A stretch of 64,000 nt of DNA from the NCBI GenBank assembly GCA_963714525.1, contig CAVQPB010000001.1, positions 21,495-85,494 of the forward strand, read 5' to 3'. Positions 9,676 through 54,263 of this stretch are shown here, piece after piece. The notes under the pieces are model-generated. The model did no database searches. It was not told the origin of the DNA and saw only the letters and a list, made by a program, of their open reading frames with translations. Both the position numbers and the translations under genes were made by a program. The number at the start of each line of letters is the position of its first letter. The stretch's first letter is position 1. The DNA comes from an uncultured Pseudomonadota bacterium. GTDB taxonomy: Bacteria > Pseudomonadota > Gammaproteobacteria > Burkholderiales > JALYOK01.

Positions 9676-9687
9676 AGTAGCACTATG

Positions 9688-9728
9688 AAAACTCCCTTAC
9701 GGCAATCCGGAAGGGAGTTTCTTTTTTT
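9688..9728 (+). terminator. Rho-independent terminator
   Basis: Stem ACTCCCTT / AAGGGAGT with an 11-nt loop, followed by a T8 run, directly after the stop at 9675. Confidence 0.7.
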
Positions 9729-9746
9729 CTGCGGCTGGCGCGGGCG

Positions 9747-10541: not shown

Positions 10542-10563
10542 TTGCTACCTATGTTTGTGTCAT

Positions 10564-10581
10564 TCCCGCGAAGGCGGGAAT
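10564..10581. repeat. Short GC hairpin (ttcccgc-gaag-gcgggaa) in an intergenic region
   Basis: Perfect 7-bp inverted repeat. Confidence 0.3.
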
Positions 10582-10650
10582 CCATTTGGCGTTTGCTGGT
10601 TACCATTGGGTTAATCTGACTTCACGATCCGAACGGCCCTGCAATAACCC

Positions 10651-14584: not shown

Positions 14585-14587
14585 CGT

Positions 14588-15481: not shown

Positions 15482-15523
15482 CGCCATAAAAGATAAGGAA
15501 CCCGGACTTAGCCTGCAACGAAT

Positions 15524-15729
15524 GGGTAGGGTGGATCAAGCGAAGCGGATCCACCATGGTGATCAACGTCCGCCGTCCTTTGCTAGCGGTTTGGTGGATC
15601 CAGCGCTACGCGCTTTGATCCACCGTCCACGTTTATTAGGACCTCTGCCACGAGCCAAGCACTGGTGCGGCTCCTGGCAAGGCATGCCGCAAGAGGCAAG
15701 CTGGACGTGGCTCCCAGGCATGATGCCTA
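15524..15729. repeat. REP-like compound palindromic element ('gggtagggtggatcaagcg...ggatccacc' family)
   Basis: Two hairpins, ggtggatc...gatccacc, plus a third palindrome ggcatgcc...caggcatg. Related copies sit at 33517 and 35086. Confidence 0.7.
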
Positions 15730-15751
15730 ATAAAGATTAAACTATTTTCCT

Positions 15752-16798
15752 ATGATTAAATGCGGTGACTTTCGCACCAACTACGCAAGCGACATGGCGG
15801 TGTTCAACACCACGTTCGCCCGCTCTTGCCTAATTATTTTTTTAGTGTTGTTGATGCTGTTCCCGATCGTGTCGACCACCTATTGGCTCGACGTGGCTAA
15901 TCGTATCGGCATCGCCATCATCGGCGCCATTGGGCTAAATATCTTAACCGGCTACACCGGTCAGATTTCCATGGGCAACGCGGCCTTCCTTGCCGTGGGC
16001 GCTTATAGCACCGGCTGGTTTGCCAACCATGCGGGGTTACCGCTGTTTGTCATCATTCCTTTGTCGGGCTTGATCACCGCCGCCGTCGGTATGATATTCG
16101 GCATCCCGTCGTTGCGGCTCAAGGGACTCTATCTCGCCATGGCCACTTTGGCGGCGCATTTCATTATCGAGTTCGTCATCGTTCATTGGGAGAGCGCCAC
16201 CGGTGGTGTAAACGGCCTGAGTATTCCCAACGCCGAGTTATTCGGATTCGCTTTCGATCACGATAGATCCTTGTTTTACTTAATTTACGTGTTAGTCATC
16301 GCCTTTGCACTATTCGCCACCAATTTGTTTCGTACTAAAGTGGGGAAGGCGTTCGTCGCTATCCGCGATCAGGACATATCTGCTGAGGTGATGGGTGTCA
16401 ATATTTTCAAATACAAGTTACTAGCCTTCGGCGTGAGTTCGTTTTACGTAGGTGTCGCCGGTTCCTTGATGGCCTACCAGGCCCGCATCATCAGTCCGGA
16501 GAATTTCCCCATCACCGTTGCGATCGACTATTTGGCAATGATCATTATCGGTGGTTTGGGCAGTATCCTAGGCTCTATTCTCGGCGCTATCTTTATTACC
16601 GGGCTGCCGGAGATATTGCGCCTGACTACCACGGCGTTGAGTGGAATTTATCCGGACTTAGTGGGGTTGTTCGCATCCATCAAAATGGGGGTGTTCGGTC
16701 TGATTATCGTGTTGTTTCTGGTATTCGAGCCCGATGGCATGGCCTCTCGCTGGCGCAAGATCAAGACCTATTGGCGTCTCTACCCGTTCTCATACTAA
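15752..16798 (+). CDS. Branched-chain amino acid ABC transporter permease (LivM-like)
   Basis: 348 aa, polytopic, with the LivM-type motif GYTGQISMGNAAFLAVGAY. Confidence 0.85.
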   Translation: MIKCGDFRTNYASDMAVFNTTFARSCLIIFLVLLMLFPIVSTTYWLDVANRIGIAIIGAIGLNILTGYTGQISMGNAAFLAVGAYSTGWFANHAGLPLFVIIPLSGLITAAVGMIFGIPSLRLKGLYLAMATLAAHFIIEFVIVHWESATGGVNGLSIPNAELFGFAFDHDRSLFYLIYVLVIAFALFATNLFRTKVGKAFVAIRDQDISAEVMGVNIFKYKLLAFGVSSFYVGVAGSLMAYQARIISPENFPITVAIDYLAMIIIGGLGSILGSILGAIFITGLPEILRLTTTALSGIYPDLVGLFASIKMGVFGLIIVLFLVFEPDGMASRWRKIKTYWRLYPFSY

Positions 16799-19248: not shown

Positions 19249-19635
19249 TCAGGGCTCGCGCGTGAGCTCAAGCTCCATATGCAACCCATCGTAATGCGCT
19301 TTCCCCTTCAGTTTTTTGTAATCATTAGAGGGTTTGAGATCAAAGCGCATCACGCGGCCGTCCGCGCCTATCGTTTGAAATCCCAATGACTTTTCCGAAC
19401 CCGTAATACCTTTAAGGGGGACCGGTTCATCGCCGAACCAAGATAAAGCGGTAAAGGATAACTGTCCACCGTTCTGCCCAATGGCCAACGAGCCTTTGCC
19501 GCTGCTCATTCCTTCCAGCCAGTTCCCCTTCCAAACACCGATATAACGCGAATCTACGCTGTCCTGACTGGATACAGTTGTAGGGACAACTAGTGCCAAA
19601 ACAAATAAAATACTTTTAAAGTAATTTATAGTCAT
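19249..19635 (-). CDS. Small secreted hypothetical protein (low-GC)
   Basis: 128 aa with an N-terminal signal peptide (MTINYFKSILFVLALVVPTTVSS). No recognisable family. Confidence 0.45.
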   Translation of the reverse strand: MTINYFKSILFVLALVVPTTVSSQDSVDSRYIGVWKGNWLEGMSSGKGSLAIGQNGGQLSFTALSWFGDEPVPLKGITGSEKSLGFQTIGADGRVMRFDLKPSNDYKKLKGKAHYDGLHMELELTREP

Positions 19636-19732
19636 TTGATATTATTAATAATAGAATTTACTTTTAATAATTAACGTTAAATCAATACGGGGATTTACCC
19701 GGCGACAAACATTAAAATCCCTCTTGACATTA

Positions 19733-19753
19733 TAGTGAGAATCATTATCATAT
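19733..19753. promoter_or_regulatory. Putative Fur box in an AT-rich divergent promoter upstream of bfd
   Basis: tgaGAATCATTATCAtatgc resembles the GATAATGATAATCATTATC consensus. It lies ~60 nt upstream of bfd, adjacent to a TTGACA-like hexamer. Confidence 0.5.
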
Positions 19754-19809
19754 GCATTAGGCAAAGTTGTTCGACATGAAGTTAACGTTCTATCCGGAGA
19801 TTAGTTGCA

Positions 19810-20001
19810 ATGTACGTATGCATCTGTAATCAAGTTACCGATCATGAAATTCGAGAAGCTGTTTATGCTGGAGCTTGCCGCCTTCGGGACATTCAGCGGG
19901 AACTAGGTGTCGCGACTCAGTGCGGTAAATGCGGCCAGATGGCAAAGTGCATATTGACTGAGACTCTATCCGAGCTCGACGGTCAATTGCAAGCAGCATA
20001 G
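19810..20001 (+). CDS. bfd: Bacterioferritin-associated ferredoxin (BFD-like [2Fe-2S] domain)
   Basis: MYVCICNQVTDHEIREAV...CGKCG. The four Cys and the 63-aa length are typical of Bfd. Confidence 0.85.
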   Translation: MYVCICNQVTDHEIREAVYAGACRLRDIQRELGVATQCGKCGQMAKCILTETLSELDGQLQAA

Positions 20002-20105
20002 CATTTTACTAATCCTCTATTTCCCTCCTGAAACAGCCTAAATTTCTGTGGTAGCGCTGCGATCGCAGTTATAATTCGCTCTGCATTCCATTCTTTGGAG
20101 TACTT

Positions 20106-20570
20106 ATGCAGGGCGATAAGAAAGTCATTCAGCACCTCAATAAAGTTCTCACCAACGAGCTCACGGCAGTGAATCAATATTTTTTGCACGCCCGTATGTT
20201 CAAAAATTGGGGATTTCACAAGCTTAACGAATACGAATACAAAGAATCCATCGATGAGATGAAGCATGCCGATAAGCTCATCGAACGTATTCTTTTTCTC
20301 GAGGGTCTGCCTAACCTGCAAGAGTTGAACAAGATCCTCATCGGCGAGAATCCACTAGAGATGTTGAAGTGCGATCTTAAGCTCGAGCACCTAGGTCACC
20401 CCGTCCTCAAAGAAGCGATCGCGCATTGCGAAAAATGCGGCGATTACGTCACGCGTGAATTGTTCGAGCATATACTCGAAGGCGAAGAAGAGCATATCGA
20501 TTGGCTGGAAACCCAACTCGGGCTCATAGAAAAGGTTGGATTAGAAAACTATTTGCAGTCGCAAATGTAG
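20106..20570 (+). CDS. bfr: Bacterioferritin
   Basis: 154 aa. ...[26 protein letters not shown]...[15 protein letters not shown] is the canonical Bfr di-iron/haem fold sequence. Confidence 0.9.
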
Positions 20571-20719: not shown

Positions 20720-21355
20720 TCAGCGAGCTTCCTCAGCAAGTGCAGCCTTGAGTATTGCCTCCATAACCCAGCGAGTAACCGAAGAGACTTCTCTATCGGT
20801 CGCATCCCACATGTCCTTCAGCACTACATACGGCTCAATGCCGTAGACCAACGATAGGGCACGCAACAAGGTTTCATAGGTTCGAGCACTGAGTTGCCGT
20901 TTCAAGGGCGAGGCGGCGCGTTGCAGAATTTTCACCCGGCGCCCGCGGCGAAACGGTTCTTCCCTTAGCGTGCCGGCGCGCTCTAGTGCCCAATGCTCAA
21001 GCGAGAGCTGCAAAGCGGCACGCAATTGCGGCTCGAATTCTTTGAATAACGGAAACGTATGCTCGAACAAGGTGCGTATGCGATCGGAACCGTCGCGCTC
21101 GTCAGAATCGAAGCTGCGTACCGGTCCGAGGCTTTCGTCGACGATCGCATTGATCAAGCGCGCCTGGTTGGGAAAGTAGCGATAAGCGGTAGCGCGCGAA
21201 ACGCCTGCGGCGTGCGCCACTTCTGCTATAGAGCCGAAGCGGCCATGACGCGTCATGCGTATGGCTTCGGCCACTAACGCGTCTCGGGTACGCTCGCGCC
21301 GCTTACGTGGGGCATCTGGTTGAGGTTTGCTGGGGCTAGTCGTGGTGCGCTGCAT
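20720..21355 (-). CDS. TetR/AcrR-family transcriptional regulator
   Basis: HTH ALVAEAIRMTRHGRFGSIAEVAHAAGVSRATAYRYFPNQ. The ORF track extends to 21415 (MRYDT...), but the MQRTT start at 21355 gives the usual ~25-aa lead-in. Confidence 0.75.
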   Translation of the reverse strand: MQRTTTSPSKPQPDAPRKRRERTRDALVAEAIRMTRHGRFGSIAEVAHAAGVSRATAYRYFPNQARLINAIVDESLGPVRSFDSDERDGSDRIRTLFEHTFPLFKEFEPQLRAALQLSLEHWALERAGTLREEPFRRGRRVKILQRAASPLKRQLSARTYETLLRALSLVYGIEPYVVLKDMWDATDREVSSVTRWVMEAILKAALAEEAR

Positions 21356-21633
21356 CAATGAATCCCGGTGAATATTCTTGAGGAAATCAGGGAAATTTAT
21401 GGTATCGTATCTCAAAATGAGATTCGTGTCTCATTTAGCAAAAGTCGATGCCGGCGACCTAATCGTGATCCGTCTGGAGTCGCAAAAGAAAGTGATGTTG
21501 GGCAAACTACGGCAGCCCGATTTCAGCAAAACAATTGGAGGAAACGCGAGACTCAAATGAGGCCTGATGGATACACGTTGATGGTGGCGATCGACGTCGT
21601 TTCGATTGATCGCTTGGGTAAGTAAAACATCCT

Positions 21634-22422
21634 ATGACTACTCGATTTCTCGAACGCGTCGCCATTGAAACTGATGGTGAGGGCGACGCGATACTGATGC
21701 TGCACGGTTTAGGTGGATCGTCCAACACTTGGACACCTCAAATGGGCTCGCTCACACGTGAAAAGGTGATTCGCTTCGATCTGCCCGGTTCCGCGCGCTC
21801 ATCCCGTGCCGAGGGCGAGTTGTCGATCCAGCGATTCGTCGACTGCGCACGGCGCGTAATGGATTTAGCCGGTGTCAGTAGGGCGCACGTCGTTGGTCAC
21901 TCGCTCGGCACCATAGTCGCTCTACATTTGGCCGCCAGCGAGCCGAGCGCCGTGCGCAGTTTATGTTTATTCGGTCCGCTGCTAGCGCCACCCGATACGG
22001 CGCGCGACAACATTCGTGCACGCGGGCAGAAGGCCCGTGACGAAGGCGTACCCGGCATGCAGGCGATCGCCGATGCTGTGCAGCAAGCGACCACGTCATC
22101 GGAAACTAAACAGCGCCGTCTCACTGCAGTTGCTTATGTTCGCGAATCGCTGATGCGACAGGACCCAGAGAGTTACGCACGCACGTGCGACGCGCTCGCC
22201 GCTGCGCAGCCGGCCGACACGACCAAGATAGATTGCCCAACCTTGCTCATCACCGGCGACGAAGACGTCGTTGCACCGCCACAATCGGTGCGTCAGATGG
22301 CAACGAAGATTTCCGGCGCACGGGTTGAAGTACTTCGCGGCTGCGGTCACTGGACGCCCGTGGAAAAACCGGAAGAATGCAGCGAACTGTTGCGACAGTT
22401 TCTTAATCAACGCATGAAATAG
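21634..22422 (+). CDS. Alpha/beta hydrolase (enol-lactonase-like)
   Basis: ILMLHGLGGS...VGHSLGT nucleophile elbow and a C-terminal ...GCGHW... motif. Confidence 0.75.
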   Translation: MTTRFLERVAIETDGEGDAILMLHGLGGSSNTWTPQMGSLTREKVIRFDLPGSARSSRAEGELSIQRFVDCARRVMDLAGVSRAHVVGHSLGTIVALHLAASEPSAVRSLCLFGPLLAPPDTARDNIRARGQKARDEGVPGMQAIADAVQQATTSSETKQRRLTAVAYVRESLMRQDPESYARTCDALAAAQPADTTKIDCPTLLITGDEDVVAPPQSVRQMATKISGARVEVLRGCGHWTPVEKPEECSELLRQFLNQRMK

Positions 22423-22448
22423 CGATCGAACCGATAGGAGGTAACATC

Positions 22449-23738
22449 ATGGCCAATGTTCTCTTCACCAACGTAAGGATCATCGACGGCAGCGGCGCGC
22501 AACCTTTTACCGGCGAGGTGCTGGTGCAAGGCAATCGCATTTCCAAAATTGGACGCAGCGCGCGGACCTTGCCGGTAAACGGCGTCACGGTAATCGACGG
22601 CGCCGGTGCGACCCTGATGCCCGGCATGTGCGAGGCGCATACCCACTTCAGTTGGAACAATTCGCCGACCTTGGAAGGTATTACCCAACTGCCGGTGGAA
22701 GAGCACACGCTATGGTGTGCGAGTGTTGCCAAAACTTATATCGATCACGGTTGGACCTCGTGCGTAGGTGCGGCGACGGCAAAGCCGCGGCTCGATGTGG
22801 TTCTGCGCAATGCGATCAATTCGGGACAAATTCCGGGCCCGCGCTATCTCGCCGCGAGCCAAGAAATTACCGTCGCCGGTTCGCTCGGCGACGAAGCACC
22901 GCCCCATCTGCCGTATCCCGAGCTAGGCATCGGCACGGTGGTGAGCGGCCCGGAAGAAATGCGCAAAACCGTGCGCAGTTATCTGAAGTTCGGTGTCGAT
23001 TCCATCAAGTTGAATCTCTCCGGCGACAACTTCACGCCGCCCGCTACCGCCCACACGAGTTGGATGAGCGAAGAGGAAATTACCATGGCTGTGCGTGAGA
23101 CCAAGCTACGCGGCAAGCGGCTGGCGGCCCATGCGCGTTCGTGCCTGTCGGTAAAGCAGTGCGTGCGTCACGGAATAGAGGTGATCTATCACGCGAGTTT
23201 TAGCGACACGGAATCGCTCGATATGCTTGAAGCCAACAAAGACAAACACTTCGTTGCGCCGGGTATTTCGATTATTGTGCGATTGCTGACCGAAGGCGAC
23301 GCGATCGGCATCAGCCGCGCTCAAGCGGTGGCCATGGGCTACGAAGAAGAAATGGAAGCGGCGTGCAACACGTTGAAAGCCATGCACAAGCGCGGTATAC
23401 GGGTACTTCCCGGCGGCGATTATGGCTTTGCTTGGGCGCCGCATGGCGCCAACGCGATGGACCTGCAGTATTTCGTCAAATACCTCGGCTTCACGCCGAT
23501 GGAAGCGATCATCGCCGCGACCAAATACGGTGGCCAGATCATGATGCAGGGCAATGAATTGGGCGAAATCAAGGAAGGTTATCTTGCTGACATGTTGCTG
23601 GTGGACGGCGACCCGGTGGCAAATATCGCTATCCTCAACGATAAGTCCCGCATCCTTGCCGTGATGAAGGACGGTGAGTTCTTTAGAGAGCCGGAGATTC
23701 GCTCATCGCGTCAACGCTTGGGCTTGTCCGCTGCTTAA
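22449..23738 (+). CDS. Metal-dependent amidohydrolase family protein
   Basis: N-terminal ...IIDGSG... and an HTH metal-binding region (CEAHTHF), 429 aa. RBS GGAGG present. Confidence 0.75.
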   Translation: MANVLFTNVRIIDGSGAQPFTGEVLVQGNRISKIGRSARTLPVNGVTVIDGAGATLMPGMCEAHTHFSWNNSPTLEGITQLPVEEHTLWCASVAKTYIDHGWTSCVGAATAKPRLDVVLRNAINSGQIPGPRYLAASQEITVAGSLGDEAPPHLPYPELGIGTVVSGPEEMRKTVRSYLKFGVDSIKLNLSGDNFTPPATAHTSWMSEEEITMAVRETKLRGKRLAAHARSCLSVKQCVRHGIEVIYHASFSDTESLDMLEANKDKHFVAPGISIIVRLLTEGDAIGISRAQAVAMGYEEEMEAACNTLKAMHKRGIRVLPGGDYGFAWAPHGANAMDLQYFVKYLGFTPMEAIIAATKYGGQIMMQGNELGEIKEGYLADMLLVDGDPVANIAILNDKSRILAVMKDGEFFREPEIRSSRQRLGLSAA

Positions 23739-23879
23739 TACGTGTGTCATTCTGAACCCTTCGCTGTGCTCAAGGATAAACTCCGTGAAGAATCAGCTTA
23801 CGCGGCGAAGCATGCGGCAACTGCTCCGTTTAGAATGAAACTGACGTCGTGACCCCATAGAATAAAAAAGGAACTCAGC

Positions 23880-24827
23880 GTGTTGCGTTTCTGGAAGTGG
23901 TTTTGGATAGCCGTGATCGCCGCACCGGTATTGGTGTTCGTTGTTTGGGCGCTGACCGACAACACCAAGCTATTTTTTTCCACGCTGCTCAATGGCCTCA
24001 CCTTAGCGTCGCTGTATTTTCTCGTTGCCAGCGGTTTCACCTTGGTGTTCGGGCTGATGCGTAACGTCAACCTTGCCCACGGTTCCCTATATTTACTCGG
24101 GGCCTATGTCGGCTGGGAAGTCGGCGACGCCAGCGGCTCCTGGATACTAGCAGTGGTCGCAGGCTTTGTGGTCGCGGCGCTGCTGGGCCTGGTGTTGCAA
24201 TTGGGGGTGTTTCGTTTCATGCAGGGCCAGGATCTACGCCAGACCATGGTCACGATAGGTATTTCCATCGTTTTAGCGGATCTTATGCTGTGGCAATGGG
24301 GCGCACAAATTTACCAATTCGATCCACCCGAAGCAATCTACGGCGTGGCGCGATTGCCCTTGGTAAAAGCTTATCCGACCTATAGGCTGGTCGTGTTATT
24401 CGCATCCATCGCGATCGGCATTATTCTGTGGTGGTTTTTAAACCAGACCCGGGTCGGCATGATGATACGCGCGGGGGTCGATGACCGCGGGATGCTCGCG
24501 GCGTCCGGCGTAAATGTGCAACTGGTATTCGCCATCACTTTCGCCATCGGCGCCGGCCTCGCCGGCTTGGCGGGTGTGGTCGGCGGTACGGCGTTATCTA
24601 TCTCGCCGGGGGAGGATACGCGTTACTTACTGGCATCGTTGGTCGTGGTCATAGTCGGCGGCATGGGTAGCATCGTCGGCGCCGGTCTGGGCGCGATTCT
24701 CATCGGTTTAGCGGAACAATTCGGCCTTGCCTACGCACCGACCTACGGCATTGTCTTTACCTTCGTGATCATGGTGCTGGTGCTCGCGTTTAGGCCCCAG
24801 GGTTTCTTGGGAAGGACAGGACGATGA
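23880..24827 (+). CDS. Branched-chain amino acid-type ABC permease (LivH-like)
   Basis: Polytopic, 315 aa, LivH-family motifs (NLAHGSLYLLGAY). Confidence 0.8.
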   Translation: MLRFWKWFWIAVIAAPVLVFVVWALTDNTKLFFSTLLNGLTLASLYFLVASGFTLVFGLMRNVNLAHGSLYLLGAYVGWEVGDASGSWILAVVAGFVVAALLGLVLQLGVFRFMQGQDLRQTMVTIGISIVLADLMLWQWGAQIYQFDPPEAIYGVARLPLVKAYPTYRLVVLFASIAIGIILWWFLNQTRVGMMIRAGVDDRGMLAASGVNVQLVFAITFAIGAGLAGLAGVVGGTALSISPGEDTRYLLASLVVVIVGGMGSIVGAGLGAILIGLAEQFGLAYAPTYGIVFTFVIMVLVLAFRPQGFLGRTGR

Positions 24828-25942
24828 GCGCTGCGCAATGGCGTCGCGCGATGAATTCGAGCGCGCAAACAGCGCAGCCTGCGGCGGTGCGGACCTTAGG
24901 GTCGGGTTCTACATATCCGGGAATCCAATCGCCTGTTTCCATCCCTAGAGAACCGTGGCGTAACCCCATCGCGCCACGCCACGTAATCGTGCTATTCGCT
25001 TTGCTGGCGTATCCATTTCTGGCGACTCCATTTTTTACTTTTCAGATTGCCGGTCAAGCATTGGCGTTAGGCACGATCGCGCTATCGCTGACCTTTCTGG
25101 CCGGTTCCGGCGGCATGGTATCCCTCGCGCAGATGACCATCGCCGGCCTCGCTGGCTACATGGTGGCGATTCTGGGTACCAGCGCCTCGCCCATCAGCAT
25201 GGGCTGGCCGTGGTGGATCGCCGTGTTGTTGGCGATCGTTATTGCCACAGTTTTCGCCGTATTTGTCGGGTGGCTGGCGGTGCGTACTGAAGGTATTTAC
25301 ACCATCATGATCACGTTAGCCATCGGCGTTGCATTTTTCTATTTGGTTTTACAGAATTACTCGGTCTTCAACGGCTTCCAAGGCTTTCACAAAGTGATCC
25401 CGCCGGTGGTGTTTGGGATCGATTTTGGCCAGCCGACCCCGTACTATTTTCTTGCGTTGTTCTGGGCCGTGGCAAGTTATCTCTTCATCAAGTATTTATT
25501 ACGTGCGCCGTTCGGAATTGCGCTCCAAGGGGTGAGAGATAACGCGCGCCGTATGAACGCGCTCGGGTTCAACAGCACTGCCCATCGCGTGGCCGCGTAC
25601 GCGGTGGCCGGCGTGATTGCTGCCCTCGGCGGCGTGCTGCTGCTTTGGTACAACAAACTCGTTACCCCCGGCGTGGTCGGCACGGGCGCGCTGATCAATA
25701 TTTTGGTCATCGCCGTGCTCGGCGGCATGCGCCATCCCATCGGCCCATTCATCGGCGCGCTGGTGTTTGTTTTGCTTCAGACGTTCGCCATCGATTCGTT
25801 CGTGCGCGAGCGGTTTAATTTAGTCATCGGTATGGTGTTCTTGATTATCGTGTTGTTTTCGTCCGATGGGTTGCTTGGGTGGTGGTCGCGATTGCGTTCT
25901 ATCACCGGCGGCGCCCAGGCGCGACTTAGGGCGCCCAAGTAG
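24824..25942 (+). CDS. Branched-chain amino acid-type ABC permease (LivM-like)
   Basis: Polytopic, 372 aa. Start overlaps the upstream stop (ATGA). Confidence 0.8.
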   Translation: MSAAQWRRAMNSSAQTAQPAAVRTLGSGSTYPGIQSPVSIPREPWRNPIAPRHVIVLFALLAYPFLATPFFTFQIAGQALALGTIALSLTFLAGSGGMVSLAQMTIAGLAGYMVAILGTSASPISMGWPWWIAVLLAIVIATVFAVFVGWLAVRTEGIYTIMITLAIGVAFFYLVLQNYSVFNGFQGFHKVIPPVVFGIDFGQPTPYYFLALFWAVASYLFIKYLLRAPFGIALQGVRDNARRMNALGFNSTAHRVAAYAVAGVIAALGGVLLLWYNKLVTPGVVGTGALINILVIAVLGGMRHPIGPFIGALVFVLLQTFAIDSFVRERFNLVIGMVFLIIVLFSSDGLLGWWSRLRSITGGAQARLRAPK

Positions 25943-26013
25943 CAAGTCAACCGACTTCTGCAGAGGCGATATAAACCGCGGCGTCAGCCGTAACTTGTTA
26001 GGAGGAGTAGATT

Positions 26014-27264
26014 GTGGAAAAAATGAAAAGACACTTGCTGCGCAGCGTGTTAAGCGTCGCCGTGGTGGCTGCATTTGCGGGTACGGTACAAGCACAAGAA
26101 ACGCTTAAGATCGGCCTGTTGGCGACCTTGGAAGGCCCATTCGCCGCGGGTGGCCAAGACGGTATGCGTGGCGCCGAACTGGCTTTGAAACAAAAGAATG
26201 GCATGGCCGGCGGCAAAAAGATCGAGTTCATTAAAGGCTCGTCCGACGCCACGCCGGACAAAGCGGTTAACGCCACGCGTAAATTGGTCGAGCAGGACAA
26301 AGTGCAGATTATGATCGGCCCATTGTCTGGTGATGAAGGCATTGCGGTGAAGAATTACTCCAAATCCCAGCCGAATATCACCTTTATAAATGGCTCGTCC
26401 GGCGCACAAGCCACGACCCTGAGCGACCCATCGACGAACTTCTATCGCTTCAATACGGAAGGCGCGCAATGGATGGTGGGCCTGGGCGAGCACGCGCTCT
26501 CCAAGGGCTACAAGAAAATGGCGTTGATCGCCGAGGACTACGGCTTCCCGTATTCGCAAGTGCAGGGCTTCATGGCGAGCTATTGCGCCAAGGGCGGACG
26601 CATCGTACAAAAATCTTGGGTACCCTTGGGCACCAAAGATTACTCCTCCATCGTCTCCAAGATCCCCGATGACATCGACGCGATCCTGGTCGTACTGGGT
26701 GGCTCTGATTCGGTCAACTTCTTATCGCAATACGAGCAGGCCGGTGGCGACAAGCCCATTGTCGGCGGCTCGATCACGGTCGATCAAACCGTGTTGAACT
26801 ACAAAGGCAAACGTCGTGACGGCGTGCTCGGTACGCCGGCGGCAGGACCGATGGCGGATTCGCTGGATACGGCCGAGTGGAAGAAATTCGTCGCCGATTA
26901 CAAAGCGAACTTCAAAGACGGCTTCCCCAGCCCGTCGCTATTCGCGTACCTCTACTACATCAACACCCGCGCCGCGTTGGAGGGTTTGGATGCCGTGAAG
27001 GGCGACCTGTCCGGCAACCAGAAGAAGTATCGCGACGCCTTGCAAAAAACTAACTTCAAAGGCCCCGCCGGCGACGTGAAGATCGACGAGAACCGCAATG
27101 GTGTCGGTACGACTTACATCACCGAAGTTGCTAAAGGCGCCGATGGCGTGCTGTACAACAAAGTGGTGAAATCCGTGCCGAATATTACCCAGACCTTGGG
27201 TCTACCAAAAGCGGATTTTGACAAGATGGGCCTGGGTTCCCGTGACGTGCCTAATTGTCCTTAG
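26014..27264 (+). CDS. ABC transporter substrate-binding protein (LivK-like)
   Basis: Signal peptide MEKMKRHLLRSVLSVAVVAAFAGTVQA, then a type-I periplasmic binding fold. Confidence 0.85.
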   Translation: MEKMKRHLLRSVLSVAVVAAFAGTVQAQETLKIGLLATLEGPFAAGGQDGMRGAELALKQKNGMAGGKKIEFIKGSSDATPDKAVNATRKLVEQDKVQIMIGPLSGDEGIAVKNYSKSQPNITFINGSSGAQATTLSDPSTNFYRFNTEGAQWMVGLGEHALSKGYKKMALIAEDYGFPYSQVQGFMASYCAKGGRIVQKSWVPLGTKDYSSIVSKIPDDIDAILVVLGGSDSVNFLSQYEQAGGDKPIVGGSITVDQTVLNYKGKRRDGVLGTPAAGPMADSLDTAEWKKFVADYKANFKDGFPSPSLFAYLYYINTRAALEGLDAVKGDLSGNQKKYRDALQKTNFKGPAGDVKIDENRNGVGTTYITEVAKGADGVLYNKVVKSVPNITQTLGLPKADFDKMGLGSRDVPNCP

Positions 27265-27290
27265 GGTTTGAATTGCAGCCGGCCCTCACC

Positions 27291-27365
27291 CCTACCCCTC
27301 TCCTGCAGGGAGAGGGGATTTTAGTCCCTTCTCCCTGCGGGAGAAGGGTGGGGATGAGGGTCGCC
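27291..27365. repeat. REP-like nested palindrome ('cccctctcctgcagggagagggg' family) downstream of the SBP gene
   Basis: Two adjacent hairpins, cccctctcc-tgcag-ggagagggg and cccttctccc-tgcg-ggagaaggg, bracketed by an outer ccctcacccc / ggggatgaggg stem. Confidence 0.65.
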
Positions 27366-27438
27366 AGTTGCAAATATCGAACAGCGCAGCAAATCGTGAA
27401 AACAAAATTATCAGTCATGTTCCACAGCAAGCATTGAA

Positions 27439-28236
27439 ATGGCAACCAGCAAGCCAAGTCTAACTCCCAACACGCCGATCGCCTCCAGCGATGCGCTCAC
27501 TCTCGAGCGCGTCACCCGAACCTTCGGTGCGCTTGCGGCCATCCAAGATGTGTCGTTCTCGGTCGCGGCGGGTGAGCGGCGCGCCGTATTAGGCGCGAAC
27601 GGCGCGGGCAAGACCACCTTGTTCAACGCGGTCACCGGTGATTTTCCGCCCACCTCGGGCCGGGTGTTGTTTTTTGGCGAGGACGTAACCGAACTTCCGC
27701 CCCATGAGCGCATCCGTCGCGGACTGCGCCGAACCTATCAATCTTCACTGCTGTTTCGCGAACTAACGGTGCGCGATAACTTATTTCTTGCCGCCCGCGG
27801 CGCGACGCGCGGGCGCTTCAGTATGTGGCGGCCGCGTGCCCATCACCCCTCGCGCGTGGCCACCAACGATTTACTCGATCGCGTGCGCCTGTCGCACATC
27901 GCGGACGAATTGGTTTCGTCCCTGTCCCACGGCCAGCAGCGTCAATTGGAAATCGGCATGGCATTGGCCGGCGCGCCGCGCATGATTCTGTTCGACGAGC
28001 CGGCCGCTGGACTGTCGCCCGCCGAGCGGCGCGAACTGGTCCAATTGTTGAACGCATTTCCCGAGCACATGGGTTTTGTACTGATCGAGCACGATCTCGA
28101 AATCGCATTGCGGGTCGTCGAACGCGTCACGATTATGCATGACGGGAGAGTGCTCAAGCACGGCACGCCGAGCGAGATCGAGAACGACGCCGACGTGCAA
28201 GCCATTTATCTCGGTTCCCACGCGCGCACCCACTGA
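27439..28236 (+). CDS. ABC transporter ATP-binding protein (LivG-like)
   Basis: Walker [10 protein letters not shown], signature [12 protein letters not shown], Walker [12 protein letters not shown]. Confidence 0.85.
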
Positions 28237-30515
28237 TGGCCACCGCATCCAACGCACCGATATTGGAGATCAATGGCCTAGACGTCTACTACGGCCGTGC
28301 CCACGCGTTGCAAAGCGTCAGCTTGCGTTTGGACAGCGGCGTGCTGGCCGTGGTGGGCCGCAACGGCATGGGCAAGACCACGCTGTGCAATGCCATCACC
28401 GGGTTGGTGCCGGCTACAGGCAGCGTTAAGCTTGCCGGCGAGGAGCTACATAAGCTTTCCCCGGACCGCATCGCCGATAGGGGCATCGGCTACGTTCCGC
28501 AGGGACGGCGGGTGTGGCCATCGCTGACCGTCGATGAGCATTTCCGCTTGGCGTCGAAAAGTGCGCGCAGCGGTGAATGGACCATCAAGCGGGTATACGA
28601 ATTGTTCCCGCGATTAGCGGAGCGACGCCGCAACGGTGGCGCACAACTCTCCGGCGGTGAGCAGCAAATGCTTGCCATCGGTCGTGCCCTGTTACTCAAT
28701 CCAAAACTGCTGGTGATGGATGAGCCGACAGAAGGACTGGCGCCGGTGATCGTCGAGCAAGTCGCAGCCATGCTCGCGCGCCTCGCCCATGAAGGTGCTG
28801 TCTCTGTGCTGCTAGTGGAACAAAACCTAGGTGTTGCGGTAGATGTCGCCGACAGTATCGCCATCATGGTCAATGGCCGCATCGCGCGCACCATGCCCGC
28901 TGCTGAATTGGCCAGGGATACCGCCTTGCAGCAGCGCCTGCTCGGTGTTCGAGCCAGCGCCGACGAGGAGGAAGAGACGGTTAGCGAAACGCCTGCCGAA
29001 TGGCGGGACGAGTCGGTCCGAGTACTCACCATACGCCGTGCCGCCGATAGCGACGTTCCATCGGTCCAAGCGCCCACACCGATTGAAATCGAAAGCGTTG
29101 AACGATCGGCTGCACGTTCGCGCGCAAGGAGCGGTTTTACCCAATGGAACACCGGCAATCCCGTCGCTCAGCCTGGTGCAGTCGCAAATGATAATCCGAT
29201 GTTCCCTGAGGAATCTGTGGTGCTTGCAACAACTGACGAACAAGCGGAACAAGCATCGGCGGTGGTGTTACCCATTGCGACCACCGCCCGCAACGCTGCT
29301 TATGTCGCCGGCACTTTCGATACCAAGGGCCGCGAGTTGCTGTTCATACGTAACTGCCTGGACCGCGCCGGCATACGCACGATCACGGTCGATCTATCCA
29401 CGTCCGGCAAACCGTCGTCTGCAAACGTGAGCCCCGCGGAAGTCGCACGCCATCATCCCAAAGGCGCAAGCGCAGTATTCACCGACGACCGCGGTTCCGC
29501 CGTCGGCGCCATGGCCATCGCCTTCGAACGTTTCATCGCGACGCGGCGCGATGTCGGCGGTTTGATTTCCGCCGGGGGCTCCGGCGGCACGACCCTGGCT
29601 ACCCAAGCGATGCGGCGTTTGCCGATCGGCACACCCAAGGTGATGGTTTCCACCGTTGCGTCCGGCGATGTAAAAGCTTACGTTGGCCCCGCCGACATCT
29701 GCATGATGTACGCCGTGACGGACGTATCGGGCATCAATCGCATTTCCGAGAAAGTGCTATCGAACGCAGCGTACGCACTGGCGGGCATGCTCGCCCATCG
29801 GCGTCGCGACGAGGGTTCGGGATCGACCAAGCCCGCCATCGGCTTGACCATGTTTGGTGTGACAACGCCGTGCGTGCAAGCGGTGGCCAAGCAATTGGAG
29901 GATCGCTACGATTGCCTGACGTTTCATGCCACGGGCACCGGTGGACAATCGATGGAAAAATTAGTCGCGTCGGGCTTGCTCTCGGGCGTGATCGACATCA
30001 CGACCACGGAAGTTGCCGATGAATTCGTCGGCGGAGTTTTTTCTGCCGGTCCGGAACGGTTCGAATCCATCATTCAAGTGAAGATTCCTTATGTGGGCTC
30101 CTGCGGCGCGTTGGACATGGTGAATTTTCACGCCAAGGATACGGTGCCGGAAAAGTTTCGCACGCGCAATCTCTACGTGCACAATCAAAACGTCACGCTG
30201 ATGCGCACCACACCGGAGGAAAACGCTGCCATGGGTGCTTGGATCGCCGCCAAGCTTAACCGCATGGAAGGCCCAGTACGATTTTTGATTCCCGAAGGCG
30301 GTGTGTCGTTGATCGACGCGCCGGGCAAACCTTTTTGGGATCCGGCCGCGGATAGGGCGCTGTTCACGGCAATCGAGGGTAATTTTCGTCCCGGCTCGAA
30401 TCGCCGTTTGATCCGCTCGCCGCATAACATTAACGATCCCGAATTCGCTGCGCTCCTGGTCAAGCAGTTCGTAGAAATCATGCCACAGCCAATGACGGCA
30501 ATTGCCTCGAGATAA
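28236..30515 (+). CDS. Apparent fusion: ABC ATP-binding domain (LivF-like, ~aa 1-240), ~90-aa low-complexity linker, then a UPF0261 (Tm-1-like N-terminal) domain
   Basis: The N-terminal half has Walker [10 protein letters not shown], signature [12 protein letters not shown] and Walker [14 protein letters not shown]. The C-terminal ~420 aa begins ...[25 protein letters not shown], like UPF0261 proteins. The two run in-frame with no stop, and an internal ATG at 29199 could also start a stand-alone UPF0261 gene. Confidence 0.65.
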
Positions 30516-30521
30516 AAACCC

Positions 30522-31353
30522 ATGCCACGTATCGCGCGTAAGCAAATACTCGAAAAATTTCGCGGCATGATCAGCCGAGGCGAACCCATCGTCGGCGGCG
30601 GCGCCGGGACAGGGTTGTCGGCAAAATGCGAGGAAGACGGCGGCATCGATCTCATCGTTATTTACAATTCAGGCCGTTACCGCATGGCCGGGCGCGGATC
30701 GCTGGCGGGCTTGCTGGCCTACGGCAATGCCAACGACATCGTAATCGAAATGGCGCGGGAGGTATTGCCGGTGGTAAAGAATACGCCGGTGCTCGCTGGT
30801 GTGAATGGAACCGACCCGTTCATGATCACCGATCATTTGCTGCGCCAATTAGGTGACCTCGGATTTTCCGGCATACAGAACTTTCCCACCGTCGGGCTGA
30901 TCGATGGCACTTTCCGCAAGAATTTGGAAGAGACCGGCATGGGATACGCGCTTGGAAGTTGAGATGATCCGACGCGCCCATGAATTCGATATGCTCACGA
31001 CCCCCTATGTGTTTTGCGAAGACGATGCGCGTGCCATGACCAGCGCCGGCGCCGACCTGGTCGTCTGCCACATGGGATTGACGACCGGTGGTGCAATCGG
31101 CGCCGAGACCGCGCTGACCTTGAAAGACTGCGTACCCATAATCAATGCATGGGCGCACGCAGCGAAATCGGTGAATCCCGACGTCATCGTCCTGTGCCAC
31201 GGCGGACCGATATCGATGCCGGCCGATGCGACCTATATTCTGAAGAATTGCCCGGCAGTTCACGGTTTTTATGGCGCGTCCAGCATGGAACGCTTGCCGA
31301 CGGAACTCGCGCTTACCGAGCAGACACGAAAATTTAAGCAAATTACTCGATAA
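30522..31353 (+). CDS. Phosphoenolpyruvate-hydrolase-like TIM-barrel protein (usual partner of UPF0261), with an apparent +1 frameshift near 30947
   Basis: [52 protein letters not shown]... continues in frame +1 as [41 protein letters not shown]... These are two ORF-track pieces, 30522-30962 and 30904-31353. Confidence 0.7.
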
Positions 31354-31370
31354 AGGTAATGGAGGACTTA

Positions 31371-33050
31371 TGACTGGCGCGCAATTTGGTTCTTTCCTAG
31401 TCGGACTGATCGCAGTCGCGATCGTCGTGGCTATCCTGGTCTGGCTGTTGCACTGGCTTTATCTACGTTCGTCAAAAGAACGGGCGTTTGTGCGCACCGG
31501 ATTGGGTGGACAAAAAGTCGTTCTCAACGGCGGCGCTTTCGTATTGCCCATCGTGCACGACGTCATTCCGGTCAACATGAATACTCTGCGGCTAGAAGTG
31601 TCTCGTGGCCGCGATAAAGCGTTGATCACCAAGGATCGCATGCGGGTGGATGTGATCGCGGAGTTTTATGTGCGCGTGCAAGAGAGTACCCAAGCCATCG
31701 CCAATGCCGCACAAACTCTGGGTCTGCGCACCATGCAGCCCGAGGCGCTAAAAGAATTGACCGAAGGTAAATTTGTCGATGCCTTGCGTACGGCCGCAGC
31801 GGAAATGACCATGGAGGATTTACACGAAAAGCGTGGCGAGTACATCCGCCGTGTGCGCAATACCGTCGCGGAGGATTTGCTCAAGAATGGCTTGGAATTG
31901 GAATCCGCGTCGCTGACGCAACTCGATCAAACCGCCATGGAGTATTTCAATCCAAGCAATGCCTTCGATGCCGAAGGTTTGACGCGTTTAACGGAAACCA
32001 TCGAGAGCCGTAAGAAGAAGCGCAACGACATCGAGCAGGATACGCTGATTCAGATTCGCAACAAGAATCTGGAAGCTGAGAAAATCAGTTTGAATATCGA
32101 CCGCGAAGCCGAAAGCGCGCGGTTGGAGCAAGAACGCGAATTGGAGATCGCCCGCGCGACGCAGCGTTCACAACTCGCGCGCGAACGGTCGCTGCAACAA
32201 CAAGAGGCGGAACGCGCGGAAATCTCGGCTCGCGAGACGGTCGACCGCTCCCGCATCGTGTCGGAAAAGGCGGTGGAATCGGAGCGCATCGCGCGCGAGC
32301 GCGAACTGCAACGGGCGGAAATCGAACGCCGCACCACGATAGAATTGGCGGAACAAGATCGCGCTATTGCGATCGCCCAGCAATCCAAAGCCCAGTCTGA
32401 AGCGCAAGCCCTGGCGGATCAAGCGCGAGCGAAAGCCGTGACCGAAGAGGAGCGCGTGTTTACCGCGCGCGAAACGGAAATGGCAAATCGCAAGAAACAA
32501 ATCGAACTCATCAGCGCTTCGCAAGACGCCGAGCGCGACGCGCTGCGCATACGCGTCGCTGCGGAAGCCGAGAAGTTGGCCGCCGCCGACCGTGGCATTC
32601 GCGGTGCGTGCCGAAGCGGAAGCATGGGCTGACGGCGATAAAATTCGGTCCCTCGCCGCCAAGATTCGTCATGAAGTCGAAGCCGAAGGTGCGCGTCTCA
32701 TGAACCAGGCGCAGAACGTCCTGACCCCCGAAGCGCGACTGTCCGTTATGCGAATGCGCTTGATCGACAAGCTGGAAGGTATCATCCGCGAGTCCGTCAA
32801 ACCGATGGAAAAAATCGAAGGCATCAAGATTTTGCAAGTCAACGGGCTGGGTGGCGGCGGCCAGATGGGGTCGGACTCGGGTGGGGCAGGTTTAGCCGAC
32901 AGCTTGGTCAATTCCGCGTTGCGCTTCCGTGCGCAGGCGCCGCTGGTGGATCAACTGCTGCGCGAAATCGGCATCGAAGGCGGCGAGATCGGTAAGATTG
33001 CACAGTCGGTTAGCGCGAGCCTGCCAACGGCAACGGCGGAGGAAAACTAA
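31371..33050 (+). CDS. Flotillin-family (SPFH/band-7) membrane protein, with an apparent +1 frameshift near 32592
   Basis: RBS GGAGG before the ATG at 31371. N-terminal TM helix, SPFH domain, then a long coiled-coil rich in EAERAE repeats. The C-terminal flotillin tail (VAFAVRAEAEAWADGDKIRS...) continues in the +1 frame (ORF 32592-33050). Confidence 0.75.
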
Positions 33051-33053
33051 TCC

Positions 33054-33494
33054 GTGGTTCGCGTTTACACCTCCAGCGTGATCGATGCGGCGGCAGAATC
33101 GGTTTGGGATGTCGTGCGTGATTTCAACGCGCTGTCGCGCTGGCATCCGCTGATCGTCGATTCTCGCATCGAAAATAGTCAAGCTTCCGATAAAGTCGGT
33201 TGCATACGCGAGATACGGCTACGCGATGGCGGACGCATACGCGAACAATTGCTGACTCTTTCGGACTTCGATTATCAATGCACCTATTCGATACTTGAAT
33301 CGCCGATGCCGTTGGCAAACTACATCGCAACGCTGAAATTGACACCGATCACTGACGGCAATCGAGCCTTTGCCGAGTGGAGCGCGGAGTTCGATTGCGA
33401 CGAGGCGCAGGAGCGCGAGTTGGCGGAGAACATCGGCCAAAGTGTCTTTCAAGCGGGCTTCAACGCGCTGAAGCAGCGCTTTGCGCGTAAATAA
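33054..33494 (+). CDS. SRPBCC-superfamily (polyketide-cyclase/START-like) protein
   Basis: 146 aa. ...WDVVRDFNALSRWHPLIVDS... pattern. GTG start with a GGAGGA RBS. Confidence 0.65.
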   Translation: MVRVYTSSVIDAAAESVWDVVRDFNALSRWHPLIVDSRIENSQASDKVGCIREIRLRDGGRIREQLLTLSDFDYQCTYSILESPMPLANYIATLKLTPITDGNRAFAEWSAEFDCDEAQERELAENIGQSVFQAGFNALKQRFARK

Positions 33495-33614: not shown

Positions 33615-34107
33615 ATGATCCGCGTCACTCGCTCAACCGTTATCAACGCCCCCATCGATCGCGTCTGGTCGGTGCTGCGGGATTTCAATAGCCACACGGT
33701 GTGGCACCCCGTGGTCGCGGAGTCGGCGATCGAAGGTGACGAGCCCTCCGATCGCGTCGGTTGCGTGCGGCGCTTTCGCTTGCAGAGATGGCGCGCGAAT
33801 TCGCGAACAGTTGCTGTCATTATCCGACCGCGATTATCGTCTTACCTATTGCATCCTCGACGCCGATATTCCTCTGGAACGCTACGTCGCCACCGTGCAA
33901 CTCAAACCGGTCACCGATGGCGACGGCACCTTCTGGCATTGGCAATCGACGTTCCGCACGCCCCGTGGCCGCGAGCAAGAACTTGCCGAGATGGTGGGCA
34001 ACGGTGTCTATGAAGCGGGATTTGCCGGTGTCGCAAAAATGTTTGCCGAGCGCAGGACAACAGCCATGCCGCGGATCGCGAATCGTGCGGCGGCGCGCAG
34101 CCGAGCA
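33615..34107 (+). CDS. Second SRPBCC paralog, with an apparent +1 frameshift near 33778; reads in-frame into the downstream quinone oxidoreductase
   Basis: MIRVTRSTVINAPIDRVWSVLRDFNSHTVWHPVVAES...VGCVRRFRL continues in frame +1 as RDGARIREQLLSLSDRDYRLTYCILD... It parallels paralog 1 residue for residue. No stop occurs before the Qor-like domain. Confidence 0.6.
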
Positions 34108-35071
34108 ATGGTGTTCGATCGTGCCGGTGGACCCGAAGTATTAGTCGCTCGCGAGCTGGAGGTAAGGGCGCCGCAAGCAGGTGAAGTGCGGATTCGCCAC
34201 AGCGCAATCGGCATTAATTATCTGGATGTTTACATACGCCGCGGCTTGGTGCCCCTCGCGCAGCCCGGTGAAGCGCTTGGTGTCGAAGCAGCCGGCGTGG
34301 TGGTCGATGCCGGCGATGGTGTAACCCATGTCATGTCCGGCGATCGCGTTGCCTATCTTGGGTTACCCACTGGCAGCTACTGCGATTTGCGCACGGTGTC
34401 GGCGGATCAAGTCGTACCCTTGCCGGCCAATGTCGACGATGAAACGGCGGCGGCCGCATTTCTCAAAGGGCTTACCGCCGAATATTTATTGCACCGCATC
34501 CATATGCTGAAGCCCAGCGAAGTAGTGTTGGTGCACGCTGCCGCGGGAGGACTCGGCGTGATCGTTGCGAGCTGGGCGCGCTCCCTCGGCGCGACGGTTA
34601 TCGGCACCGTATCGTCGGAAGAAAAAGCGCGGCTCGCCCGCGATCACGGTTGCCATCACGTCGTCGTCACGCGCGACTATGTAGTTCGCCGACACCGTCA
34701 TGCAAGCCAGCGGTGGTCACGGTGCGGATTTGATCATCGACGGTTTGGGTCAGCAAGCGATGAGTGAAAACATCGCGGCGCTGGCGATGTTCGGCCACTG
34801 GGTCAGTGTGGGCCAGGCCAGCGGCGGAATTGCCGCCGTCGATCCACACCTATTGCTCGCTAAGAGCGCAACGTTTTCCGCACCCGCCGTGTTGCATTAC
34901 ACCAGCGATCCGATGCGCCTCGCACAAATGGCCGATCGCCTGTGGAATGCGATTCAATCGGGCGCCGCGCGGCCGCACATCGGCGCGCGCTACCCGTTGT
35001 CTGCGGCAAGGGAAGCGCATCGCGACCTCGAATCTCGCGCGACGCGCGGCTCCTTACTCCTGATCCCATAA
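34108..35071 (+). CDS. Zn-independent quinone oxidoreductase/MDR-family NAD(P)H oxidoreductase (Qor-like), with an apparent +1 frameshift near 34680
   Basis: MVFDRAGGPEVLVARELEVRAPQAGEVRIRHSAIGINYLDVY...AAGGLGV is a Rossmann GxGxxG. The C-terminal part continues in ORF 34700-35071. Confidence 0.7.
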
Positions 35072-54248: not shown

Positions 54249-54263
54249 CCTGAAAGGAATCTC

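Follow-up and report, generated by a model that had tools for sequence, protein, structure and literature searches.

The 64,000-nucleotide stretch of DNA considered here (the window) comes from contig CAVQPB010000001.1 of an uncultured Pseudomonadota bacterium (assembly GCA_963714525.1, positions 21,495 to 85,494 of the forward strand). At its centre of interest is a gene that joins, in one frame, a LivF-like ATPase of an ATP-binding cassette (ABC) importer and a UPF0261 domain, the kind of domain found in the plant resistance protein Tm-1. Judged by sequence comparison, this fusion is a genuine, conserved chimeric subunit of a five-component importer of the HAAT family (Liv/Urt type). The gene and its parts, in window coordinates, are as follows.

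28236-30515, plus strand: ATPase::UPF0261 fusion gene, 759 aa, with a UrtE/LivF-like nucleotide-binding domain (NBD), a disordered tether and a UPF0261 (Tm-1-like) domain
28236-28949, plus strand: NBD portion, aa 1-238, ABC motifs intact
28950-29294, plus strand: tether, aa 239-353, about 115 aa, with an acidic run at its start, predicted to be disordered and selectively constrained
29016-29039, plus strand: linker motif 1, VRVLTIRR, aa 261-268 (consensus VxVxTVRR), specific to the window clade
29139-29162, plus strand: linker motif 2, TQWNTGNP, aa 302-309 (consensus T-(R/Q)-W-x4-P), present in both fusion clades
29295-30488, plus strand: UPF0261 domain, aa 354-751, with GTFDTK intact and equivalents of MarK His219 and His304 present

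The fusion is read as a single unbroken frame of 759 codons, in which Pfam places ABC_tran at aa 26-165, the N-terminal UPF0261 family at 355-522 and UPF0261_C at 532-749; the NBD in full takes up about aa 1-238. The tether coincides with the junction (28950-29290) that a first-pass annotation, made from the sequence by itself, had flagged when it proposed the in-frame fusion and asked whether a stop codon had been lost there. That proposal is borne out by the frame, by the Pfam and NCBIfam domains, and above all by recurrence of the architecture in two clades.

The database search that the same annotation recommended was run, and hundreds of clusters turned out to share the architecture. Among about 5.8 billion proteins, at least 119 further 90%-identity clusters have it besides the exact sequence; their members are 714-780 aa long, align at 66-85% identity over 94-100% coverage, and all carry PF00005, PF06792 and PF23189. 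The close relatives come from MAGs (metagenome-assembled genomes) of Betaproteobacteria/Burkholderiales. An exhaustive HMMER scan of 1.84 billion cluster representatives yielded about 15-20 distinct 50%-identity clusters of the same architecture (670-755 aa, 42-55% identity). A second fusion clade, of about 120 more clusters with proteins of about 720 aa, was recovered by a search seeded with the fusion protein P0129, and its members are about 57% identical to the window protein. Together the two clades amount to about 240 90%-identity clusters among the matches listed, spread over Alpha-, Beta- and Gammaproteobacteria and including cultured strains. Cultured Alphaproteobacteria of the second clade include Pararhizobium sp. 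IMCC21322, Shinella zoogloeoides, Hoeflea sp. AS16, Pseudahrensia aquimaris, Paralimibaculum aggregatum and others. When species-representative genomes were scanned with the full-length alignment, most of the 80 loci returned were ordinary LivF genes; the informative ones (L008-L017) include fused copies in the cultured Reyranella soli NBRC 108950, a Burkholderiales MAG and an Arenicellales MAG. A metagenome scan with the decayed UPF0261 part of P0129 returned one irrelevant locus only, at 35% identity.

Other genes of the assembly are broken by at least five single-base insertions that shift the frame, so that a stop codon or frameshift between separate LivF-like and UPF0261 genes might have been lost in an error-prone contig; this reading is effectively refuted, because the same continuous open reading frame (ORF) recurs in both clades, in cultured strains and in hundreds of independent assemblies, isolate genomes among them, a 759-aa member of its own 90%-identity cluster is encoded on two independent JGI metagenome contigs, the region 21634-30515 has no frame-breaking indel relative to the related locus L005, and the substitution ratios given below also rule it out. 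The conclusion for the family is thus independent of this strain.

Both domains of the fusion look catalytically competent from their motifs. In the NBD, the Walker A, Q-loop, LSGGEQQ, Walker B (LLVMDEP) and EQN elements can be read in the translation and are invariant in 111 homologues. The NBD scores 97.1 bits against ABC_tran, 220.3 against UrtE (cut-off 285.8) and 160.5 against LivF (cut-off 441). Membership of the C-terminal domain in UPF0261 is indicated by PF06792 (199.5 bits), PF23189 (311.5 bits) and NF002673 (614.6 against a cut-off of 520, over aa 354-751). Its GTFDTK sequence at aa 359-364 aligns to GTADTK of Tm-1 and TQDTK of MarK, and residues D362, T363 and K364 are invariant in 48 window-clade sequences and at least 90% conserved in 111. 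AlphaFold2 (AF2) modelled the NBD and UPF0261 domains confidently, with predicted local distance difference test (pLDDT) values of about 90-98.

The UPF0261 family had been described in the first-pass annotation as lacking any assigned bacterial function, which is now outdated. MarK, a UPF0261 protein of Novosphingobium aromaticivorans (Saro_1862, PDB 9MPY), was reported in 2025 to be an ATP-dependent kinase of acetovanillone and related aromatics (PMC12624787). The fusion shares with MarK the two-subdomain UPF0261 fold family, the D-T-K residues and both pocket histidines. Lys364 is the counterpart of Tm-1 K20 and of MarK K16, the position at which the E16K change raised MarK activity about 1600-fold (PMC12624787). 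In MarK, His219 forms a hydrogen bond with the phenolic oxygen, and His304 makes a stacking contact with the substrate (PMC12624787); the equivalents here are H564 and H649, and Gly195 is conserved too. Four other pocket residues are replaced, namely T196 by V542, F283 by M628, I285 by N630 and H348 by I693. The nearest solved UPF0261 structures are those of Tm-1 (3wry/3wrw, 329 bits over aa 17-412 of the query fragment), with MarK (9mpy) at 179 bits. Because the four pocket residues differ and the domain is closer to Tm-1, the fusion is taken to be a UPF0261 member rather than an orthologue of MarK, and it probably acts on a different substrate. Unlike the fusion, MarK is a free-standing soluble homodimer without an ABC domain, encoded beside the acvCDEF carboxylase/phosphatase genes; no biotin-carboxylase-type genes (compare acvCDEF/hpeCBAD of MarK) occur in the window operon or in the related loci examined.

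Tm-1 of tomato and other plants offers a second comparison. In both cases UPF0261 is paired with a PF09370 TIM barrel, the two forming one protein in plants and coming from neighbouring genes here (PMC5028733). In the plant protein, known only as an inhibitor of viral replication, UPF0261 is joined at its C-terminal end to the TIM barrel, whereas here its N-terminal end is joined to an ABC ATPase, and the TIM barrel has a gene of its own. A minority of the fusions depart from the intact pattern: the GTxDTK and GGSGGT motifs are degenerate in P0129, and similar decay is seen in several other representatives of 50%-identity clusters (P0131, P0132, P0137, P0141, P0144 and P0158).

The tether has proved to be more than the acidic or low-complexity linker of about 90 aa that had been described at first. 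Its start is indeed acidic, and yet it is about 115 aa long and holds conserved motifs. It is predicted to be disordered because AF2 left residues 241-341 at pLDDT values below 50 and without secondary structure, with alignments of 48 and of 111 sequences alike. Between the window and its close relative L092, which are separated by a synonymous divergence (dS) of about 0.5, the ratio of nonsynonymous to synonymous substitution (dN/dS) is 0.24 in the tether, 0.019 in the NBD and 0.024 in the UPF0261 domain. By this measure the tether is under purifying selection and is not neutral filler.

Overall identity in the tether is low, at 14-43% per 20-residue window, and two short motifs stand out from it. 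Around motif 1, 48 sequences share R268 without exception and keep D271 in at least 90% of cases, and a regular expression for the motif matched 99 of 131 sequences. In motif 2, an alignment of 111 sequences drawn from both clades shows T302, W304 and P309 to be at least 90% conserved; the form PTRW[ST] is found in 96 of 104 second-clade proteins, and the motif also occurs in those representatives of 50%-identity clusters that align at 42-55% identity. Motif 2 is missing from L012 and L014, the unfused homologues that were inspected. Docking of the motifs in cis was considered and dropped, as AF2 predicted none with 48 and then with 111 sequences. We infer that motif 2 may instead be a docking site for a partner in trans; since AF2 shows no docking, the identity of that partner is a guess, for which flotillin, encoded downstream, would be the prime candidate.

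The presence of a TetR regulator, an alpha/beta hydrolase, an amidohydrolase and a five-component importer upstream of the UPF0261 domain, as proposed in the first-pass annotation, is confirmed by Pfam domains.

20720-21415, minus strand: TetR-family regulator, divergent (TetR_N 26.6 bits against a gathering score of 24), a window-clade accessory
21634-22422, plus strand: alpha/beta-fold hydrolase (Abhydrolase_1 102 bits) in the PcaD/RutD-like neighbourhood, equivalog of neither
22449-23738, plus strand: metal-dependent amidohydrolase (Amidohydro_1 83 bits; NF051886 221.8 against a cut-off of 500)
23880-24827, plus strand: ABC permease 1, UrtB/LivH-like (BPD_transp_2 125.5 bits; UrtB TIGR03409 179.4 against 250.3)
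24824-25942, plus strand: ABC permease 2, UrtC/LivM-like (BPD_transp_2 121.4 bits; UrtC 107.8 against 296.2)
26014-27264, plus strand: periplasmic substrate-binding protein (Peripla_BP_6 192 bits)
27280-27363, plus strand: inverted repeat (arms of 39 nt) in the spacer that separates the binding-protein gene from the ATPase genes, including a hairpin that resembles a terminator (27295-27317) with a short run of T after it
27439-28236, plus strand: ABC ATPase 1, UrtD/LivG-like (ABC_tran 107.9 bits, BCA_ABC_TP_C match; UrtD 214.9 against 304.1)

The importer resembles LivFGHMJ/K and UrtABCDE in its five-part make-up of a Peripla_BP_6 binding protein, a pair of BPD_transp_2 permeases and two NBDs that differ from each other, and its gene order and ABC motifs are canonical for HAAT importers. 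It is unlike them in that its UrtE/LivF-type subunit has a C-terminal extension of 520 residues. The TGA stop codon of ATPase 1 shares one base with the ATG of the fusion. Transport of urea or of branched-chain amino acids was ruled out as an identity on the curated cut-offs, all of which are missed. For the Urt models (TIGR03407-03411) the shortfalls of UrtB, UrtC, UrtD and UrtE are those given above, and UrtA reaches 79.9 against 492.75; for the Liv models the scores are 160.5 against 441 for LivF, 179.6 against 362 for LivG, 86.9 against 379 for LivH, 60.1 against 366 for LivM and 44.7 against 477 for the binding protein. The Urt (urea) models score higher than the Liv models.

Of the upstream enzymes, the alpha/beta hydrolase reaches 153.7 against the PcaD model TIGR02427 (cut-off 255.85), and the amidohydrolase falls in a carboxypeptidase, Xaa-Pro dipeptidase and ochratoxinase-like subgroup, its nearest solved chains being 3be7 and 3mtw (Arg carboxypeptidase), 2qs8 and, lower down, 4c5y (ochratoxinase). 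A divergent TetR gene stands at the same position in L001-L003, and in the second clade an AraC regulator is found instead. No TetR-operator palindrome or inverted repeat was found in the intergenic region 21380-21660. The orthologous spacer of L005 has no counterpart of the inverted repeat at 27280-27363. This element could act as an attenuator by which the binding protein is expressed above the level of the membrane subunits, or it could be an insertion like a repetitive extragenic palindrome (REP) or a miniature inverted-repeat transposable element (MITE).

The operon had been thought to end with the TIM barrel at 31353. In fact, it runs on through a flotillin gene, a SRPBCC gene and a SRPBCC-alcohol dehydrogenase (ADH) gene to 35071.

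30522-31353, plus strand: PEP-hydrolase-like TIM barrel (PF09370), with a one-base insertion at about 30946-30952 that leaves half-ORFs at 30522-30962 and 30904-31353
31370-33050, plus strand: flotillin, with Band_7/SPFH at 31370-32596 (64.1 bits) and Flot at 32601-33047 (122.2 bits), and an insertion at about 32596
33054-33494, plus strand: SRPBCC (Polyketide_cyc2) ligand-binding protein, 87 bits, intact and kept in both fusion clades
33615-35071, plus strand: SRPBCC::zinc-type alcohol dehydrogenase/quinone-oxidoreductase fusion, with insertions at about 33786 and 34681

The TIM barrel does directly follow the fusion, as was first noted; it is not, however, an intact single ORF, being split by an inserted base. 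Its two half-ORFs match PF09370 profile positions 1-136 (231.6 bits) and 135-267 (193.3 bits) in different frames, and an intact gene of 276 aa is present in L005, L092 and L093. The L005 orthologue scores 439.6 bits against PF09370 and 421 bits against PDB 2p10 (Mll9387). The only other signal is a marginal one to NMO, a TIM barrel of the flavin mononucleotide (FMN) type, at 16.7-27.2 bits against a gathering score of 28, and this match is too weak for NMO-type chemistry to be assigned. The flotillin has a hydrophobic helix at its N-terminus and is intact in relatives (PF01145 and PF15975). The intact SRPBCC-ADH orthologue, of 484 aa, contains Polyketide_cyc2, ADH_N and ADH_zinc_N.

Frame-breaking insertions in this assembly were located from tblastn frame switches and from DNA alignments to close relatives. 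Relative to L005, L092 and L093 there are five +1 single-base insertions (at about 18153, 30946-30952, 32596, 33786 and 34681) in four genes: a pyrroloquinoline quinone (PQQ) dehydrogenase at about 18153, the TIM barrel, the flotillin, and the SRPBCC-ADH gene, which is hit twice. The tblastn frames pass from 3 to 1 in the TIM barrel and from 3 to 1 to 2 in SRPBCC-ADH. Four of the five insertions lie within 3.8 kb, and none lies inside 21634-30515. The truncated TIM fragment of 146 aa on record comes solely from this contig, which is 784,776 bp long. The insertions are either assembly errors or marks of real pseudogenes, and in the second case the downstream half of the module would be decaying in this strain.

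The order of the module is permease, permease, (binding protein), ATPase D, ATPase E::UPF0261, TIM barrel, flotillin, SRPBCC protein(s) and oxidoreductase. This order is kept in 13 of 14 distinct fused loci, the fourteen being the window, L001, L002, L003/L004, L005/L006, L007, L009, L010, L089-L091, L092/L093, L094 and L095. The core proteins are 50-79% identical between the two clades, and the binding protein is 51-54% identical to that of the second clade. The oxidoreductase is the SRPBCC-ADH_zinc fusion in the window clade and a CoxMSL-like molybdenum (Mo) hydroxylase, followed by MoxR and VWA genes, in the second. The genes around the core also differ. Window-clade accessories are the TetR regulator, the alpha/beta hydrolase and the amidohydrolase, to which many relatives add an FAA-hydrolase and a second amidohydrolase, and in their place the second clade has AraC, an iron-containing alcohol dehydrogenase (Fe-ADH) and an aldehyde dehydrogenase (ALDH).

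A flotillin gene follows the TIM gene (or, in L090, the fusion itself) in 13 of the 14 distinct fused loci, and in none of the 6 unfused loci was a flotillin gene found within the 10-kb flanks examined. This co-occurrence of flotillin and fusion is suggestive. There is a precedent in Staphylococcus aureus, where the ABC importer IsdEF/FhuC requires the flotillin FloA (PMC10147376). The two cases would be alike in that an ABC nutrient importer depends on a flotillin scaffold; they are unlike in that the flotillin of S. aureus serves the cell as a general housekeeping scaffold and has its gene elsewhere, whereas here a dedicated gene lies inside the importer operon. The flotillin is about 560 aa long in the window clade and reaches an unusual length, 876-1163 aa, in the second. 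In three second-clade flotillins (L089:13025-16516, L091:13061-15691 and L094:12011-15361) the region between SPFH and Flot is greatly expanded, and precomputed annotations list no Pfam family for these proteins.

The UPF0261 and TIM genes are adjacent in every locus except L090. There the fusion (P0129, 10001-12133) has decayed UPF0261 motifs and the TIM gene is gone, while fusion, flotillin, SRPBCC and Mo-hydroxylase are retained. Since L090 has lost both the UPF0261 motifs and the TIM gene, it fits the view that UPF0261 and the TIM barrel work as a pair.

Unfused relatives were also found. In Falsiroseomonas sp. HC035 (L012), the LivF-like gene stops and the UPF0261 gene comes next in another frame. 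In an Actinomycetes MAG (L014), the LivF-like and UPF0261 genes are in the same frame with one stop codon between them, and in Acidimicrobiia MAGs the UPF0261/TIM pair lies in the same cluster as a HAAT transporter. A recurrent association of the pair with transporters, on which the first-pass annotation had staked its proposal, is thus seen across phyla, fused in Pseudomonadota and adjacent or clustered without fusion in Actinomycetota. Because unfused relatives keep the genes adjacent or clustered, the functional association is taken to be older than the fusion and spans phyla. In another Actinomycetes MAG (L013), a gene at 10672-11684 lies between the LivF-like and UPF0261 genes; its translation, judged by eye, resembles a TolB-type beta-propeller with a signal peptide.

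The reading that we tentatively favour is that the products of the operon are organised at the membrane as a module which takes up a solute and goes on to activate it, by phosphorylation or in some other way. Delivery of the solute would fall to the binding protein and permeases, and at the inner face of the membrane the tethered UPF0261/TIM enzyme would process it. By analogy with the kinase chemistry of MarK (PMC12624787), the likeliest reaction would be ATP-dependent phosphorylation. The product could then pass to clade-specific enzymes, which would be the alpha/beta hydrolase and amidohydrolase under TetR in the window clade, and Fe-ADH, ALDH and Mo-hydroxylase under AraC in the second. 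The flotillin and SRPBCC proteins may organise the product or hand it on, and the linker motif may dock a partner in trans, flotillin again being the prime candidate. A physical coupling of UPF0261 to uptake had been expected if the fusion were real; the fusion is genuine, and the coupling itself is a reasonable step from it.

Several observations weigh against this import-and-activate reading. With four MarK pocket residues replaced and only 179 bits shared with MarK, the chemistry could differ. MarK works alone, and its description (PMC12624787) mentions no TIM-barrel partner. The minority of fusions with degenerate ATP motifs implies that the fused domain can persist without catalysis. The linker motif is undocked on either domain in the AF2 models, the correlation of flotillin with fusion is confounded by phylogeny (Pseudomonadota against mostly Actinomycetota), and three downstream genes of the module are broken in this window.

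A bolder form of the import-and-activate reading, which we regard as improbable, is an ABC-importer counterpart of group translocation. Here the T-(R/Q)-W motif would dock on a flotillin scaffold, the solute would be phosphorylated as it leaves the permease in a dedicated membrane microdomain, and SRPBCC proteins would carry the product to oxidoreductases recruited to the membrane.

The main rival, though on the unlikely side, is that UPF0261 (perhaps together with the TIM barrel) is a regulatory appendage that senses a ligand or ATP and gates the importer ATPase without modifying any solute. The C-terminus of the NBD is the classical site of regulatory domains in importers, and those of the MalK, MetN and ModC NBDs are small and folded against the NBD dimer. 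The fusion is like these proteins in carrying its extra domain at the C-terminus of the importer ATPase. It is unlike them in that the appended unit is an enzyme-like domain of about 400 aa behind a disordered tether of about 115 aa, so that at least 100 disordered residues intervene where known regulatory domains pack under the NBD dimer. Pfam and NCBIfam scans of the 759-aa protein returned ABC/AAA-type and UPF0261 families only, with no regulatory domain of the MalK, ModC or MetN type. Retention of the fusion in lineages with decayed GTxDTK and GGSGGT, including P0129 in L090, which is without a TIM gene too, would suit a regulatory role, as would the action of tomato Tm-1 through ATP-bridged binding of a partner protein and not through any known catalysis (summarised in PMC12624787). 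Against this, the ATP-site residues and the MarK pocket histidines are conserved in most members under strong purifying selection, and unfused Actinomycetota homologues keep the pair as free-standing proteins.

Less probable again is a Rosetta-stone origin without mechanistic coupling, in which neighbouring genes of one pathway were merged by ancestral loss of a stop codon and have been kept for co-expression or stoichiometry, the tether being functionless. The single in-frame stop of L014 and the adjacent genes in different frames of L012 show how easily such a fusion could arise, and the poor conservation of the linker would be expected if it had no function. The linker dN/dS, however, is 0.24 and not about 1, the T-(R/Q)-W...P motif is kept across clades that are only about 57% identical overall, and the fusion co-varies with an operon-encoded flotillin.

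As to the substrate, an imported amide or amino-acid-like compound had been suggested from the neighbouring genes. That suggestion now looks weak, because the TetR, hydrolase and amidohydrolase genes are clade-specific accessories, replaced in the second clade while the binding protein and core remain orthologous. The binding protein itself offers another, weak clue. Its nearest solved chain is 4zpj, followed by 4evq, 4ey3, 4evs and 4f06, with Leu/Ile/Val and urea binders behind. The latter four chains we take to be binders of benzoate derivatives from Rhodopseudomonas palustris, an assignment that reportedly goes back to Michalska et al. in 2012, that a literature search could not confirm and that serves as a lead only. 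From these sequence matches, the substrate could plausibly be a small acid of aromatic or heteroaromatic type, or such an acid conjugated as an amide.

Each domain of the fusion was already known, and the architecture is already in databases, with IMG naming both halves. In the literature that mentions UPF0261 (mostly titles and abstracts), no published description of an ABC-UPF0261 fusion, of the linker motif or of the flotillin association was found. NCBI often names the fusions "ABC transporter permease" (L089, L091 and other RefSeq/GenBank records), a name that does not fit the scans, in which ATPase and UPF0261 domains alone were found; the misannotation looks systematic.

UPF0261/TIM-barrel pairs are widespread bacterial ancestors of the plant resistance protein Tm-1, and only one stand-alone UPF0261 member, MarK, has a known activity. 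Since the fusion ties the pair to an importer with a dedicated binding protein, the substrate should be findable by a ligand screen of that protein, and cultured strains in which this could be done include Reyranella soli, Shinella zoogloeoides, Pararhizobium sp. IMCC21322 and Hoeflea sp. AS16. In this way the function of the Tm-1/UPF0261-TIM family would become accessible to experiment. To couple uptake to metabolism through an enzyme-like domain on an importer ATPase, inherited together with an in-operon flotillin, would be unusual, and the group-translocation-like version, if true, would show which biochemical role was ancestral to the plant antiviral protein Tm-1.

Other features of the window lie outside the operon. 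Just upstream of the TetR gene is a low-GC patch (19500-20570; 0.41-0.45 against about 0.57 elsewhere) that holds a ferritin/Dps-like gene (20106-20570) and two small ORFs without a Pfam match. A second Liv-type ABC system, with a binding protein, two ATPases and two permeases, occupies 8419-16798, and AMP-binding (acyl-CoA-synthetase-like) genes at 10648-11922 and 12653-14584 are interleaved with it. Finally, 52918-57076 contains fragmentary Mu/Tn-type transposition genes in overlapping frames (rve integrase core, Mu-transpos_C and TniB), which look like a decayed or frameshifted transposon.

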